This document shows, piece after piece, positions 5,777 through 53,848 of a stretch of 64,000 bases of DNA. A program made the position numbers and the translations under genes. Numbering within the stretch: the first letter of the stretch is position 1; the number at the start of each line of letters is the position of its first letter. Origin of the DNA: an uncultured delta proteobacterium (GTDB lineage Bacteria > Desulfobacterota > Syntrophorhabdia > Syntrophorhabdales > WCHB1-27); the NCBI GenBank assembly GCA_963810935.1, contig CAWEPK010000008.1:640001-704000 (forward strand), written 5' to 3'. Under the pieces are notes generated by a model that saw nothing but the letters and a program-made list of their open reading frames with translations, did not search any database and had not been told where the DNA came from.

Positions 5777-6617
5777 CTATTTCCCTCCATAGAACGCACA
5801 CGAAACGTAGCCGACGACGCCGCTCATGTCACCCGTTACGTCCCCGGAATTCGCATAGTTAAGCACCTTTGCGCTGGACGCGCCCAGGCCCTGGCATACG
5901 ACCATGGAGGCCAGTATCGCGCCTGCGCCGCATGCCTCGTATTTCTCATGCGTCACGCCCTCGGCCAGCCCCTTGAGGTCGAACCGCTCGATCATCTCTA
6001 TCCCCGCCTTGTCGAGCGTTACAGCTATCCCATAGGCATAGTAATGGGAAAGGTCCGTGCTCCCTATTACTAGGTATTCCCCTTCCCTGCCCTTGATCGT
6101 CTCGCAAATCGAGCTCTCCGAGCTCCATGGAGCCGTACGGGTCCTGGGCGGACCCCATGATGAGGGGCACTATCCTGAAGCCTTGGGGGAGGACGGTCTG
6201 GAGGAAAGGTATCTGGACCTCTATGGAGTGCTCGCCACGGTGCATCTTGGCATCTGCGTGGACCAGGTCGCCCGCTTTAACGAGCGCGTCCGCGAGGTCC
6301 TCGTCGATGTCCACCAGGCCGAGGGGCGTCTTATAGGCCCCCGTATCCTGCACGGCTGCGCCTATAAAGAATGAGCGGTGGCTCGGCGCGAGGATGATGA
6401 CCGTATCGTAACGGCGCCCGGCAACGGCCTTGTAGCCGTAAGCCGCCGTCGGACCGGAGTACATATATCCCGCGTGCGGAGATAAAAGCCCCCGGATATC
6501 TCCCGGTATATCCGCCGGGCGGACCTTGCTCAGATACGTCTCGATATCGGATTTCAACACGTCGGGGTTGCGGGGATAAAACGTGCCGGCGACTGAAGGC
6601 TCTCTGATCTCACCCAT
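5777..6617 (-). CDS. amrB: AmmeMemoRadiSam system protein B (MEMO1 family); apparent frameshift near 6110
   Basis: 'REPSVAGTFYP', 'SPHAGYMYSG', 'EHSIEVQIPFLQ'; C-terminus 'EACGAG...YANSGDVTGD...VVGY' in another frame. Confidence 0.85.
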
Positions 6618-6789: not shown

Positions 6790-9063
6790 TTGTTCGTAGC
6801 CGCAGTCCTCGCCTTTTGCGGAGGCATCTACCTGGAGGCGCTTTACGGCGCACGCCTGGCGCTCATTCTTACGGCCGCCATTATATCGATGGCGATCCTG
6901 CCGTTTGCGCTAAAATCCGCTAAGATATTCGCCCTCCTGCTCCTGGCCGGCTTCATGTTCTGCGGCGGAGCGCGGCTCGCCTTTATCGACGCACGACAAG
7001 GGGCGCCTGACGAGAACGGAGACAAACAGGTCTACGAGGGCACTGTTGTGGAAAGCTCTTCCCGCCTCAAGGTGCTCGCCCTTACCGGTCCCGACCGCCT
7101 GGCAGGGATGCGCGTAGTATTTTTCTCCGGCGTCGACCTCCCCCTCTCCCAGAACGTCAGGGTTTTCGGGACGATCAGGGCCATCGTGCCCGGTTTTCAA
7201 AACCCCGGCAGCCTCTCCTGGAAATGGGTAAAGCGGTTCGAAGGGATCTCTTACGAAGTTAAAGGCAACCTGCTCTCATCGGCGCCGGGCAGGGACCCCG
7301 TTGCATCGCTCCGGCGCTACTTCAAGGAAAACATAGAGAGATCGGGAGCGCAGAGCACCGAAATACTCAAGGCGCTGACCATAGGCGACAGGACCGCCGT
7401 CACAACTGCGCAGAATGAATTATTCCTCCACACGGGCACGTCGCATATCCTCGCCATCTCGGGCTTCAATGTAGGCATCATATCGGGATTTTTCTTTTTC
7501 CTCGCAAGGGCGGGCTTCCGGCTGATAAGACGCTTCCGCATGTCCGGGAGGGACCGGAGATATGCCGCCCTAATCACGATACCCTTCCCCTTCGTTTTCA
7601 TGCTCGTGGCAGGCGCCGGTGTTTCCGTGATCCGGGCGGCGATCATGATCGCAGTCTTCATGCTCGCCGTCTTCATGGAGCGCGAAAAGGACTTTTACAA
7701 TACCGCGGCCCTGGCTGCCCTCGTCATTCTGCTCGTTTACCCCCATTCGCTCATGACGCCCTCCTTCCAGCTTACCTTCCTGAGCCTTCTCTTTATCGTT
7801 ATGGTCATGCGAAGGCTTATGCCGTTCCTGGTCCGTATAAAGAACAGGGTCGCCCTCTGGTCCCTCTCGACCGTCCTATCTACGGCGGCCGCCACGCTCG
7901 GCACGGCCCCGATAGTGCTCTACTATTTTTATGGGATCAACCCATTCTCCATACTGCACAACCTCGTGACGGTACCGCTCATGGGCGTTTGCGCCACCGT
8001 GCTCGGCCTCGTCGGCATGATTACGCCATACGGATGGCCCCTGCTCCTTCCGGCAGGGAAGATCGCCGGGATAAACCTTGCCCTGCTTCACCGGCTCGAT
8101 TTCGGATACCTTTACCCGCTTATAAGACCCACGCTTTCGGAGATGGCCCTTTATTACGCGATCCTCATCGCCCTCATCCATCTGCATAAACGGTTCGTGC
8201 CCGCTCTCCTTCTCTGCGTCCTGGTCCCCCTATCGGCCCTCCAGGCTTACGCGGACTATCGGGAGCGGTTCAACACCGACCTCGGCATCTTCTTTATCGA
8301 CGTAGGCCAGGGGAATGCAGCGCTGATAGAAGGACCGGGGGGCTTCAGGGCCTTAGTCGACGGCGGCGGCTTCCCCGATTCCGATTTCGATATGGGCAGG
8401 CAGGTGATAACACCCTTTCTGCTTTACCGGAAGATACGGACCGTCGATTACGTCATCAATACGCACCCGCACGCGGACCACATAGGCGGACTTGCGTACG
8501 TGATGCGCAATTTCAATGTCTCCCGGCTCGTCGCGGGCGGCCTTTATCCCCTGGAGCGGAAATCGCGCGATCTGATCGAGGCCGCTCGTTCCAGGGGAGT
8601 GCAGTGCCTTGTATGGAAAAAGGGAGACGCCATAACGACCGGCGCTTTTACGATAGACGTGCTCCATCCGGACGGCCCCGTCTTATGGGACGACCCGAAT
8701 AACAGCGCCCTGGTGCTGAAAATCCGTTACGGGCAGACCTCGTTCCTGCTGCCCGCAGATATAGGAAGCGACGTGGAGAAATGGATGGTGGCGTCCGGCC
8801 TCCCCTTAAGGTCCGACGTCCTGGAGGTCCCGCATCACGGCAGCGCCAATTCGAGCAGCTTTGCGTTCATTGCCGCAGTCAGGCCGACGCTCGCAGTAGT
8901 CAGCGCCCGCCCCGGCCGGATACTCCGCCTGCCGAGCCCTGCGGCGCTCAGCCGGTACAAGGCCCTTTCGATACCCGTCTTGCAGACGGACATGCAGGGC
9001 TGCGTCGAGGTCCGTACCGACGGCCGCCGCATCACGTGGCGGACGTACGGGGAGAAATGGTAA
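6790..9063 (+). CDS. comEC: DNA internalization competence protein ComEC/Rec2
   Basis: 'HILAISGFNVG', 'SFQLTF', metallo-beta-lactamase domain 'IDVGQG', 'THPHADHIGG', 'NNSALVL', 'PHHGS'. Confidence 0.93.
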   Translation: MFVAAVLAFCGGIYLEALYGARLALILTAAIISMAILPFALKSAKIFALLLLAGFMFCGGARLAFIDARQGAPDENGDKQVYEGTVVESSSRLKVLALTGPDRLAGMRVVFFSGVDLPLSQNVRVFGTIRAIVPGFQNPGSLSWKWVKRFEGISYEVKGNLLSSAPGRDPVASLRRYFKENIERSGAQSTEILKALTIGDRTAVTTAQNELFLHTGTSHILAISGFNVGIISGFFFFLARAGFRLIRRFRMSGRDRRYAALITIPFPFVFMLVAGAGVSVIRAAIMIAVFMLAVFMEREKDFYNTAALAALVILLVYPHSLMTPSFQLTFLSLLFIVMVMRRLMPFLVRIKNRVALWSLSTVLSTAAATLGTAPIVLYYFYGINPFSILHNLVTVPLMGVCATVLGLVGMITPYGWPLLLPAGKIAGINLALLHRLDFGYLYPLIRPTLSEMALYYAILIALIHLHKRFVPALLLCVLVPLSALQAYADYRERFNTDLGIFFIDVGQGNAALIEGPGGFRALVDGGGFPDSDFDMGRQVITPFLLYRKIRTVDYVINTHPHADHIGGLAYVMRNFNVSRLVAGGLYPLERKSRDLIEAARSRGVQCLVWKKGDAITTGAFTIDVLHPDGPVLWDDPNNSALVLKIRYGQTSFLLPADIGSDVEKWMVASGLPLRSDVLEVPHHGSANSSSFAFIAAVRPTLAVVSARPGRILRLPSPAALSRYKALSIPVLQTDMQGCVEVRTDGRRITWRTYGEKW

Positions 9064-9096
9064 AGGCGGAAGAGTACGACAGAGGCAAGAGAAAAG

Positions 9097-9215
9097 AGGC
9101 GCACCCCACGGGCTAAACGGGATCTATGTCCCAACGGTCTCTCGGACCGTGCCGTTCATGACGGCTGGTGGTCACCCGAAGGCGCCACAATTGCCTTTGA
9201 TGTGGGGTGCCGCCT
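9097..9215 (-). ncRNA. Candidate structured small RNA (~119 nt, multi-branch junction); family unknown
   Basis: 5'/3' closing helix AGGC-G-GCACCCCAC/GTGGGGTGC-GCCT; four internal hairpins including a cUUCGg loop; followed by a U-rich tail and preceded by a sigma70-like promoter. Confidence 0.55.
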
Positions 9216-9222
9216 GGATATG

Positions 9223-9251
9223 AATTTACATCCAGGCATTGAAATTTGCAA
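9223..9251 (-). promoter_or_regulatory. Sigma70-like promoter for the candidate sRNA, overlapped by an inverted repeat (9212-9237)
   Basis: Minus strand TTGCAA-N17-TAAATT; gcctggat..atccaggc palindrome spans the -10 box and start site. Confidence 0.5.
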
Positions 9252-9287
9252 GGGATAATCTTGTCGCGAGCGCCGCAGCACCCGTCT

Positions 9288-9989
9288 CTATAGCGGCTTG
9301 TTCACGAAGACTATGGACGGGGTAACCAGGACACTTTCGAACCTGGACTCCCTTTCCGACTTGCCCCCGAATTTCTTCTTTGTCACGTTGGAGGCGGCCT
9401 GCTCGTCCACGAGCTGCTTGATAAAGCCTACCATGCCGTAGTTATGGCCCCGCTCCGGGACCTTCAGCTTCAGTTTGGGCGCCAGCCACGAGCGGAAGAA
9501 ACCTCGCTTCGAATATGAGCCGAGGTCCAACTCCCGGCCGTCCGGCCAGTCGTCCAGGTAGCCCGTGCACCAATCCTCGATAGCGTAGACCCCGCCCGGC
9601 TTCAGGTGGTTGTCAAACAAATGCCAGAAGGCCGTCTTCGTCAGCTCCCCCAGGTGGGAGGCGTCATCGATAATGATGTCAAACCCTTCCGGGGCAGTCT
9701 CCTCGGCAACCCGCGTCAAAAACGCCGGGTCCGCCTGGCTGCCCTCATAGACCCGGATGCGCTCCTCCGGATTAAACCCAGCCGGCAGGCGGATATCGAT
9801 GCCCACTATCTGCCCTTTCAAGAAGTAATCCCGCCACAGCAGCAGAGACGCCCCCTTTTGGACCCCCAGCTCGAGCAAGACGATCTCCTTTCCGACCCAG
9901 GGCGCAAAAACCTTATCATATGGCCCAAGCAGCCCGCCGCCTATCTTGTCCGAATCATACAGTTTAAGGTCCAACTCCGCGCTTCGCAT
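9288..9989 (-). CDS. Class I SAM-dependent methyltransferase (MycE/TylE-like O-methyltransferase domain)
   Basis: 'LLELGVQKGASL', 'IVGIDI', 'GSQAD', 'FDIIIDDASH', 'LKPGGVYAIED'. Confidence 0.8.
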   Translation of the reverse strand: MRSAELDLKLYDSDKIGGGLLGPYDKVFAPWVGKEIVLLELGVQKGASLLLWRDYFLKGQIVGIDIRLPAGFNPEERIRVYEGSQADPAFLTRVAEETAPEGFDIIIDDASHLGELTKTAFWHLFDNHLKPGGVYAIEDWCTGYLDDWPDGRELDLGSYSKRGFFRSWLAPKLKLKVPERGHNYGMVGFIKQLVDEQAASNVTKKKFGGKSERESRFESVLVTPSIVFVNKPL

Positions 9990-10470
9990 ATCTTCCTTTC
10001 CCTCGTGCCCCTTACATGCGTTTGTATTGCCCGATTATATCCCGCCACCCCGCCGAAGGCAACAGGAATGGGGCACATCACGAGTTAGCCGCGAAGCAGA
10101 CCCGGTAGAACGGTTCGTCGGCAATCGGTCCATTCATGAATGGGGCACGCCACTGTGCCTACAGGCATCGCCGTCCCACCGCTTTCAACGTTACTTGTGG
10201 CAATCAAGCGAACGCCATTCATTTAGAAAAACCGATATCACCTACAAGTGGCGCGTTTGGCCAGTAATGAGGGAAGTAAAGATTGCCGCGCGAAAGCAAA
10301 CAATACCCAGAGCCGGCAGCGTGAGCAATTGAGTGAGGCGGCGCATCCTATTCCTTTTTTGGGTCGGGAGAACCTCCAAGACAAGACGCCTATTCTGTTT
10401 CGTTTTTTGGTTCGTTTTCTCTACACTTGCCGTCTACCCCACCAGCTATCGAAACAGCCTGTTTTTACAA

Positions 10471-11319
10471 CTACTGTTCCAAGGAACTAAATATATTTGA
10501 TTCCCGCATCTTATGGCCGTATTTCTTTAAAATATCGTAAAAAACGTCTCTCTTGAAAGCTGCACACCTCCCATCAATTTGGATATCTTCGATAAACTCA
10601 TCATCGATCTCTATACGAATATCAGAGCTGAATTGGAGTATGTCTTCCTCATTTTCAATACCGGCGTGCTCATTCGAAGGGCTGAATTCGATTATTGCCC
10701 TAACCTCGTTTTCGAAATCATAAGCCCTGTCTTTGTACGACCACGGATGCTCCCAAATAAAGATATTAACCATCTTGCCTACAAGTGCGAATTCTTCCCT
10801 TATCTCTTCGCGCCTTGGTAAACCCTTTGCTCTCAATTGTTTAATTGCTTGTTGGACGTCGGTATTTCTTGTTTCAATCTCCCTTTTTGTTTCTGAATAA
10901 TCGATGTATGTTACATCGATTACGTCGACATAGCCGTCCGGTGAAAACTCACATAATTTATGCGGTTGCGTGGGATAAATTCGCACATAATTCTTTAATG
11001 CGGCGCTCAGTTTTTCTCTTGTGGTTTGAATTAGGAATGAGTCAGAATCCTTTGAATAAAGTGACCACATTGCAGCCGAGCTTGGGTTTTTTGTCCAGCA
11101 TGATATGTATGACGATGCCGACTTGCCCGTTATGTTAACATCCGGAAAAAATCTCCTGGGCAGCAGGGTAAATCGTTTTTCCAGTTCGTCTAGAACAAAA
11201 CCGTACCCCTCGTTCTTGTCATTAAATCGAGTTGCCTGACTCATACGCAGGCGCTTGTCCTTAAGCAAAGTATATAGGTCAAAGAAGCTTACGAACCGAA
11301 AGATGTCTTCTCCGCTCAT
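10471..11319 (-). CDS. DUF2971-like hypothetical protein, AT-rich
   Basis: 'FNDKNEG', 'YISCWT...AMWSLYS', 'KDRAYDFENEVR' match the DUF2971 pattern. Confidence 0.65.
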   Translation of the reverse strand: MSGEDIFRFVSFFDLYTLLKDKRLRMSQATRFNDKNEGYGFVLDELEKRFTLLPRRFFPDVNITGKSASSYISCWTKNPSSAAMWSLYSKDSDSFLIQTTREKLSAALKNYVRIYPTQPHKLCEFSPDGYVDVIDVTYIDYSETKREIETRNTDVQQAIKQLRAKGLPRREEIREEFALVGKMVNIFIWEHPWSYKDRAYDFENEVRAIIEFSPSNEHAGIENEEDILQFSSDIRIEIDDEFIEDIQIDGRCAAFKRDVFYDILKKYGHKMRESNIFSSLEQ

Positions 11320-11397
11320 ACTGCCTCCATAGGGATGGGACAGGGCTCAAATCTTTATTCTTGACATAAGGCCCGTGGTCACAGCGCGACGAGAGCG

Positions 11398-12533
11398 TTA
11401 GGAACCATTGAAGGCCACGGATTCAAACAGTCCGTCGGGAGCTTTTCGCGTCAGAACAAGAACATGGCCAAAGCCAAGCGTTCCATGAGTGGCCCAGCAA
11501 TACTCGAAAAGAAGGATATCTTCAATCCCGTCGCCGTTGAAATCTGCTCGTGCAACTTCGATGAGTTGGTGTCCCATGCCTTCAGGCTCAGCGACCTGTA
11601 GAAGGTTTTGGCGCAGTTTAGTAATCACGATAGTGCCGTCAGATACCCTACTTTGATAAGTAGCCGTCAGGTCCTCCTCGGGAATATCTTCGCCAAGGTG
11701 TGGAAACAGCGAAAAGGGCATCAGTTCGAGGTCGACGATTCCGACTCTAGGATTAGCTATAAAGCTGACTTGAGGTGTCGTCGCAGCTTCTAGCGCTGTA
11801 AGCAAACCGCATTGATGTTCGAAGAATGTCGACATTTTGATGTCAAAGGTCGAGTAGGCGTGGAAACCGGCTTTCATTGCTTCGTTGTATTCACGGCAGG
11901 TCCGAACATGAACGTGCTCGTCCGCGTCTACTAGTTAGGGTGACTCCGTCGATGTGGTCAGTCTGGCCCATGCGAATCGGGCGGTCTCGGAGAAATTCGA
12001 TGTCAGCCTTTGCCACAGCACGTACCTCAGTTGCATCAGCAAACTTCATCCCTTCAAGGAGCGTAAATATATCTTCGGGCTGTTCTGAGTGATCTTCGAG
12101 GATTGCAGCTACTTCTGAAGCTTTCAACTCGCCACGTTCAAGGCATTGCTGAAGAAGAATCAAGGCCTTGCCTCGAATGTTTCGGTTCTCGATGCGCTTG
12201 AGATTTGCTTGCACCTCGGCTTTCTCGGTCGCAGCAATAGAAAGAAAGAACCGAGTATGTGCGGGCTCTAGAACTATTGAACCCTTCTGGAGGTTGGCCC
12301 CAGGGCGACACGGCAAGAGATTTTCGTATCCATAGATGTCAAATTCGCTGGGTAATCCGAGTTCGGCCTTCACGATTTTCAGCCTGTGCCGGGTCTTCGG
12401 CGAGGGTTTCCGGAATAACGTGGTCGATGTGAAAACTACTCACATCGAGAGGCTCTCTCGTATAAGCGCACTTCTTCTCGTGTGCCAGCCAAATGGCTTC
12501 TCGTTGAGATGCGCTGAACTTCTGGCTCGACAT
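11398..12533 (-). CDS. HNH endonuclease-domain protein; two apparent frameshifts (~12380, ~11900)
   Basis: 'REAIWLAHEKKCAY...HIDHVIP' then 'ENLLPCRPGANLQKG'; three consecutive ORF fragments read as one protein. Confidence 0.65.
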
Positions 12534-12985
12534 AGGACGCGTGCTCCCTGACCTGCTTATCACGTTAGGTGTTACTCTGTTACATTCAACTTTTTCACAC
12601 AACCCGCCCTTTCTCTTGCTTGGTCTTACCTATTATCATTACCGCCCGTACTCTTCAACGTCAAGAAGTATTGCTTGGGTAGCGACTTCAGGAAGTACGG
12701 TTGCCCTCCGCCTGCTTTGTCGCACTTACCTGGTACATTTTGAAAGAATTGACCCAGAATGTCCGGTTGAGTTTCTGATTGTTCTGCCCTTTCGCCGTGC
12801 TTCAAGGCGTACATCCAACTGCGAAGTTGGCAACTATCCGGTTGGGAACTATAGAAAAAGGCAGCCGAAAACTGACCTACGCTGAAAAGAAAACCCACCA
12901 ACTCAACATCAACCCGCGCCTTCGCGAAGAGCGGCAAGTATGGTTATGCAGATTTGGATGAGCGCGAGCCCTCTTTTGCGTTTGC

Positions 12986-53637: not shown

Positions 53638-53688
53638 GCGCGCCTGCCGCGAATCGAACGCGGAACCTACGGCTTAGAAGGCCGTTGC
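53638..53688 (-). repeat. Exact 51-bp duplicate of the tRNA-Arg 3' part (att-like)
   Basis: Identical to 53774-53824; covers the anticodon arm through the 3' end. Confidence 0.92.
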
Positions 53689-53689
53689 G

Positions 53690-53770
53690 GCAGTTATTGG
53701 GGCTAGCGTCGCCCCCTCCACGAGCAAAGCTCGCGGAGCCACCCCCTCATAAAAAGGAAAGTGCATTTTA
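53690..53770 (+). repeat. Dispersed repeat, copy G
   Basis: gcagttattggggctagcgtcgccccctcca-cgagcaaagctcg-cggagccaccccctcataaaaaggaaagtgcatttt. Confidence 0.85.
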
Positions 53771-53774
53771 GAAG

Positions 53775-53848
53775 CGCGCCTGCCGCGAATCGAACGCGGA
53801 ACCTACGGCTTAGAAGGCCGTTGCTCTATCCTGTTGAGCTACAGGCGC
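53775..53848 (-). tRNA. tRNA-Arg(UCU), CCA not encoded
   Basis: GCGCCTG/CAGGCGC acceptor stem, TAGCTCA..GGATAGAGC D-arm, ACGGC-CTTCTAA-GCCGT anticodon arm, GTTCGAT T-loop. Confidence 0.96.

Follow-up and report, generated by a model that had tools for sequence, protein, structure and literature searches.

The 64,000-nt stretch of DNA analysed here, called the window below, contains on its minus strand a conserved RNA gene that lies outside Rfam. Judged from sequence, fold and conservation the gene is real, and it very likely originates from an insertion sequence (IS). Two of its homologs make up the entire 5' leader of IS110 transposase genes of the IS1111 group, read on the opposite strand, and six copies, the one in the window included, stand alone and are called solo copies below. 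The reading that we are inclined to favour is an antisense RNA of the Asr9/Asr10 kind that descends, as a solo form, from the left end of an IS1111-group element and would most likely repress cognate elements in trans.

The RNA gene and its promoter

An earlier note on this DNA had proposed a promoter, a start site, a closing helix, four hairpins and a pyrimidine tail, and all of these were found again at the same positions on the minus strand (Table 1). The closing helix P1 is formed by 9215-9202 pairing with 9109-9097 (13 bp, one bulge), and the A at 9215 opens the helix. The earlier description of the fold, with its closing helix and four hairpins, stands except that it overlooked a short inner helix, P2 (9195-9193 with 9113-9111), which turns the structure into a five-way junction and is retained in the homologs with a compensatory change. 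The minimum free energy structure of the 119-nt RNA is identical to its centroid structure (-59.6 kcal/mol, z -4.16), and none of 200 shuffled sequences reached the same stability. The two strands of the gene have about equal folding stability.

The promoter was not called by a stock promoter scan, as it scores 8/12 matches and the cut-off is 9/12, while its geometry was observed in 8/8 homologs as compared to 6 of 2000 random windows. The fold measured against shuffles, the promoter geometry and the conservation together bear out the proposal of a stand-alone, promoter-driven, structured RNA, and it is likely, as far as the sequence can tell, that the gene is transcribed from the minus strand. 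At least half of the sampled words were found in four runs, all of them soil metagenomes from one study.

The inverted repeat over the promoter, which the earlier note had compared to an operator, is indeed present, and an equal or better score was obtained in 9 of 400 random windows. The operator role was not supported, because among the solo copies only that of the window has the long repeat in a strong form; weak traces were seen in 2 of the 5 others.

Table 1. Positions of the RNA gene, its parts and its neighbours in the window
Feature	Position	Strand	Remark
-35 hexamer TTGCAA	9246..9251	-	TTG-start hexamer at 17-18 nt spacing in 8/8 homologs
-10 hexamer TAAATT	9223..9228	-	Predicted start 9215; 17-nt spacer to TTGCAA
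Imperfect inverted repeat, 26 bp, spanning the -10 box	9212..9237		11/13 pairs; full length only in the window copy
Structured RNA, 119 nt	9097..9215	-	Closing helix P1, inner helix P2 and four hairpins
P1 5' arm	9202..9215	-	In IS-linked homologs complementary to the Shine-Dalgarno sequence and spacer of the transposase gene
Hairpin H1, bulged A	9168..9188	-	Common to solo and IS-linked copies
Hairpin H2	9151..9165	-	Stem sequence swapped in IS-linked copies, pairing kept
Hairpin H3 (GGUC-C...GA-GACC)	9134..9150	-	Best-conserved core between solo and IS-linked copies
Hairpin H4	9119..9132	-	Present in 6/6 solo copies, 0/2 IS-linked DNA copies
Pyrimidine tail	9085..9096	-	Position of the left subterminal inverted repeat of IS-linked copies, lost here
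Cassette, 222 nt	9060..9281		Absent from both of the nearest relatives, G002 and G001
comEC, convergent neighbour	6790..9063	+	TIGR00361 above cut-off; incidental
233-aa ORF upstream of the RNA gene	9288..9989	-	No family match; incidental

Solo homologs

Five close homologs of the window copy, 77-90% identical, were obtained from 3 of 21 genomes of the same family and from 2 of 97 metagenome pattern matches, the other 95 of which were chance. BLAST gave genuine matches in 3 of 60 relatives. With covariance models the RNA was found in 4 of 22 family genomes, the window's own included, which represent four genera, and in 4 of 96 genomes of the class. Each genome has one copy and each copy lies amid different genes. 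The start codon, the end repeat and the transposase are absent from the window locus and from the five other solo copies. From our own reading of the translations, the neighbours presumably include a HicAB-like pair and a B3/4-like gene, among others. The copy in G021 (L017) has what we take to be an IS21-like element, from L017:1290, inserted in the 3' arm of P1, and the L037 copy adjoins a gene that we read as a broken histidine-kinase gene with an IS66-like fragment.

In all six solo copies a hexamer starting with TTG is followed after 17 nt by TAnnnT, which ends 7-8 nt before the first paired G of the helix. The hexamers and their spacing are kept in 6/6 while the bases of the spacer drift. 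The structure is retained at the identities given above, which answers the question of conservation that had been raised for this RNA. Covariation, which had been proposed as a further check, is weak among the six solo copies alone, where 95.6% of the cells are paired and three pairs are altered on both sides, a number equalled in 37 of 500 shuffles. It is stronger when the IS-linked copy of genome G233 is added, with 10 of 39 pairs altered on both sides and 0 of 500 shuffles reaching this, on an alignment that was fitted by the model.

By eye, most solo copies repeat one module in each of their four hairpins: a UU linker, a stem starting with G, a C, a variable loop, GA and the other side of the stem. 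The same module is seen in three hairpins of the IS-linked copy of G1180, despite its replaced H2 stem sequence.

An antisense ORF of 20-21 codons in four copies was considered as a toxin gene and rejected, since it corresponds to the former reading frame of the transposase; in L110 it meets an early stop, and in the window copy the frame is shifted. A relic of transposase coding in the solo promoters was not significant (110/2000). A search for the empty sites in G014 and G021 gave neighbours that were not syntenic and no boundaries. Three of the solo copies (L015, L017 and L037) have in common a further block of about 40 nt on the upstream side of the -35 box, with scores of 36-40 as compared to 25 for the 99th percentile of the null, and this block, which in L037 borders on the presumed broken histidine-kinase gene, may mark a larger unit.

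The genomic site

The two nearest relatives of the window's genome, G002 and G001, have about 36 nt from comEC to the next gene, with a short spacer motif in common. G002 aligns (94% in both flanking genes) up to 9059 and resumes at 9282, and G001 aligns to 9058 and resumes at 9294. Because both relatives carry the short spacer without the RNA gene, the cassette was most likely gained in the lineage of the window, replacing the spacer, as the alignments suggest. No target duplication was visible at the cassette edges (9060 and 9281) in this comparison. A link to comEC, to which the RNA gene had been noted as convergent, was not supported, as 0 homologs lie beside comEC and the RNA gene is missing from the comEC loci of four relatives. 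The ORF at 9288..9989 on the other side is presumably methyltransferase-like, by our own reading.

Several other features were observed in the window and its genome (G000). On the minus strand at 53639-53712 there is a partial duplicate of the adjacent tRNA-Arg(TCT) gene (53774-53848), identical in its 3' two-thirds, and it could mark an integration site. Three tRNA-Sec genes are located on contigs C4, C6 and C11; the contamination of the genome is 7% and some of them may be foreign. Positions 10255-12684 form a variable island where the alignment with G002 and G001 breaks and which contains ORFs that lack NCBIfam matches. The gene for an AmmeMemoRadiSam protein B at 5777-6617 (minus strand) seems to be split over two frames, the first ORF covering profile positions 1-154 of 270. 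The intergenic region 9990-10230 has a motif of 14-19 nt in direct and inverted copies, mostly kept in G002, and a promoter-like site at 10062-10034.

Other RNA classes and searches

When Rfam 15 was searched over the window, only two tRNA matches reached the gathering threshold. The best score at the RNA locus was 14.9 bits (E 1.8) and nothing below E 1.3 was obtained at the homolog loci, and in this way the Infernal check suggested by the earlier note ended with no family match for the RNA. ARAGORN was blank at the locus, and the tmRNA, 6S and small SRP genes of G000 were found at other sites, which supports the view that the RNA is not a tRNA, tmRNA, SRP or 6S RNA. A bacterial Y RNA was rejected on the grounds that its partner Ro60/TROVE (PF05731) was unmatched in G000, which is 93% complete; the controls gave a signal in 2 of 14. 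The RNA gene is single-copy by BLAST and by three models, so that a REP or MITE element was rejected, and the many copies that would speak against a small RNA were not seen. A riboswitch or cis-acting leader on the minus strand, already thought unlikely, does not agree with the downstream context, which is different in 6/6 solo copies.

No DNA match to the RNA gene was found in the plasmid and phage collections, where the nearest plasmid transposases are at most 43% identical, and no homolog was found in seven viral scans, whose listed matches were inspected. In a pattern scan of genome contigs, 1 of 119 loci among the matches listed was genuine, the G008 copy. The match in G019 (30 nt within an rpoD-like gene), that in G111 (26 nt), and those in G004 and at a second site of G014 (E 0.6 and 0.8) were rejected as chance. 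A BLAST search of G000 for antisense targets gave no match above 17 nt.

Copies in front of IS110 transposase genes

A model of the six solo copies, run against 150 genomes of the phylum, gave one new match, in G233 (42 bits, E 8.6e-6), and a model built without G1180 placed its best match among 19 loci exactly on the leader of G1180 (24.4 bits, E 0.0012); these two are the only IS-linked copies seen as DNA, and the E-values of the models are rough. The match in G233 lies immediately in front of a gene for an IS110 transposase (PF01548 and PF02371) and on the opposite strand. Its P1 5' arm is complementary to the Shine-Dalgarno sequence and spacer of that gene, and the promoter lies within the first 14 codons. 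The second element, G1180, has a transposase that is 58% identical and the same P1, P2, H1, H2 and H3. In the IS-linked copies the closing helix hides the ribosome-binding site of the transposase.

The relation was also visible in proteins. The 120 closest transposases are 57-90% identical, and ten of them have mis-called N-terminal extensions, 8 of which read the same leader and end in the translated P1 arm. Two extensions, P0042 and P0007, match the solo copies L110 and L017 with z values of 14-16 and 5-12, and their matches to the solo copies exceed the shuffles even without the Shine-Dalgarno part; the window copy, which is the most divergent, gave no clear score against the extension peptides (best z 2.6). 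The residues that encode both G233 hexamers are kept in 75 of 113 homologous proteins, which as kin are not independent. Duplexes between solo RNAs and leaders were better than all 60 shuffles in 10/10 pairings, with both IS leaders, and the window copy likewise pairs with both IS-linked leaders better than all shuffles.

The hairpin core is absent from eight other IS-related leaders (L264-L269 and others), transposase searches in two further phyla (135 and 93 genomes) gave no match, and the model had no match at fourteen WOR-3-centred transposase matches. No cognate IS was found in G000, where the resident IS110 copies are 24-35% identical, which implies that the RNA is without a resident target. 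The end motifs of the parent elements had 0 matches in G000 and are absent from the aligned flanks of the solo copies. G000 also has two copies of an unrelated IS110 element (C17:17329 and C17:104717), identical where printed, one of them back to back with a third IS110.

Subterminal inverted repeats and an extended non-coding 3' end give the parent elements the layout described for the IS1111 group in PMC11187229 and PMC11208160. In 8/8 elements 9 nt of the 3' end match the left junction exactly and vary along with the flank, and matches in the leader are at most 5 nt. The RNA is not a bridge RNA, because the guide-bearing RNA sits 3' of the transposase; identity with a bridge RNA or seekRNA was rejected also for the missing variable guide loops. 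Bridge-RNA-like 3' ends were observed at L259, L278 and L264-L269, and two that were scanned had no Rfam match.

When the ends of the G233 element are joined, TTGACA and TAATAT come to stand 17 nt apart, and we infer that an mRNA transcribed from this joined-end promoter would begin with the base that opens the leader helix. Six relatives have leaders of 40-71 nt that keep only the helix burying the Shine-Dalgarno sequence, five of them with compensatory changes compared to G233. The five closest relatives with short leaders lack the tyrosine codon that makes the antisense -10 box in G233.

Origin and possible function

In the intact elements the transposase leader takes up the 110-121 nt that separate the start codon from the left inverted repeat. 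The first codons contain an outward-facing promoter motif, from which the complementary RNA would be transcribed. Since the -10 box is inside the coding region, this RNA would hold the anti-Shine-Dalgarno arm, the complement of the ribosome-binding site, and its pairing should block translation. In one lineage the transposase, the start codon and the inverted repeat appear to have been lost while the promoter and fold were kept and a fourth hairpin was gained, and this lineage is now found at unrelated sites within one bacterial family. Most likely, the solo RNA would be stable, pair in trans with the leaders of incoming cognate elements and damp the transposase. It is because the solo RNAs still pair with both IS leaders that we read them as an antisense brake that outlived its element. 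That the solo RNA represses IS elements is, taken by itself, conceivable from the predicted pairing. It is somewhat unlikely that the host keeps the free-standing RNA for protection in trans against a whole IS1111 subfamily, be it by blocking leaders or by titrating a protein.

The distribution of the solo copies would also suit a functionless or selfish relic, that is, a remnant of a left end or a hitch-hiking non-autonomous module like ssr9/MITEPpu9, with a promoter that still fires and no use for the host. The RNA is patchy in the family (4 of 22 genomes), at a different site in each and gained at the window site; one copy is cut by the presumed IS21-like element, the presumed histidine-kinase gene right ahead of the L037 copy is disrupted, and G000 has no cognate target that was found. 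We consider such a relic unlikely, since the promoter hexamers and spacing are preserved in every solo copy against a background of drifting spacer bases, the stems are kept at 77-90% identity, and a single copy per genome without IS ends is not what a MITE would show.

Another explanation is that the fold matters and not the pairing, so that the RNA would be a protein-binding scaffold or sponge whose hairpin modules are sites for the recombinase or a host regulator, with one more site added in the solo copies. The module in all four hairpins of most solo copies and in three of G1180, the gain of H4, and the long helix that ties up both ends of the RNA, poor for antisense pairing, would agree with this. 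We find it quite unlikely, as the module was noted by eye, no co-occurring partner gene was found, and the mirror structure on the leader strand could be the selected one. That an independent host small RNA was captured by the IS lineage as a leader, or that the resemblance is chance, is highly improbable: the solo copies resemble one another far more than they do either IS copy and have a common hairpin missing from these, but the closing helix overlaps the inverted repeat and ribosome-binding site of the IS and persists, through compensatory changes, in relatives with short leaders that lack the core, and the solo copies occur in one family only while the IS-linked forms are found in at least two separately searched phyla.

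Returning to the antisense brake, its interest lies in the recombinases that it would act on. The IS110/IS1111 bridge recombinases are under development for genome editing, with attention so far on the guide RNA. The present RNA, of a small RNA family absent from Rfam, is a second conserved structured RNA, at the end opposite to the guide RNA in a subfamily of the IS1111 group; the opening codons of the transposase double as its promoter, and its solo lineage has survived the loss of the element. Should the solo RNA repress in trans, the host would be keeping the transposon's own brake, a natural off-switch for bridge recombinases. If the host-protection reading is true, this would be an inherited transposon immunity consisting of RNA only.

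Comparison with known systems

The antisense RNAs that repress insertion sequences include RNA-OUT of IS10 and art200 of IS200, whose folds are simpler. They resemble the present RNA in the predicted repression by covering the translation start of the transposase, a comparison by description only and between different IS families. The bridge RNA or seekRNA of IS110/IS1111 elements (PMC11208160, PMC11187229) is similar in being a structured non-coding RNA in an end of elements from the same family.

The closest systems are those of ISPpu9 and ISPpu10, described in PMC8450116 and PMC12288879. Antisense RNAs and orphan RNA modules of IS110 elements have a precedent there (PMC8450116, PMC12288879), and repression by IS antisense RNAs is stated in PMC8450116. 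Asr9 of ISPpu9 and Asr10 of ISPpu10 are, as in our parent leaders, antisense to a structured leader that buries the ribosome-binding site (PMC8450116, PMC12288879), and their outward promoter is located at the start of the transposase gene as in 2/2 IS-linked copies. In ISPpu9 the -10 box of the antisense promoter lies over the ribosome-binding site, and the effect of Asr9 is to activate translation (PMC8450116). With a length of about 180 nt, Asr9 starts past the ribosome-binding site and belongs to an IS110-group element without subterminal repeats, whereas the RNA described here is 110-124 nt, has IS1111-like parents and would include the anti-Shine-Dalgarno arm, the likeness being one of description and not of sequence. 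Furthermore, the window RNA is, unlike Asr9 and Asr10, not in cis to any transposase. In this it is more similar to Ssr9/MITEPpu9 of ISPpu9, an IS-derived small RNA gene with its own promoter far from any transposase. However, Ssr9 has the sense orientation relative to the leader, occurs in many copies and lies between IS end boxes, while the window RNA is of the antisense type, single-copy and without recognisable ends.

In the literature covered, which fell short of most subscription papers, neither a left-end antisense RNA in IS1111-group elements nor the present RNA family was described; the supplements or database of bioRxiv 10.64898/2026.10.21.760802 may contain the motif. The earlier suggestion of an undescribed class is right in so far as the RNA lies outside Rfam, but it is kin of the left-end leader of IS110/IS1111 elements, for which the Asr9/Asr10 setting is described. 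The kind of RNA, an IS110 antisense RNA, is a known one, and what makes this one notable is its orphan state without a transposase.
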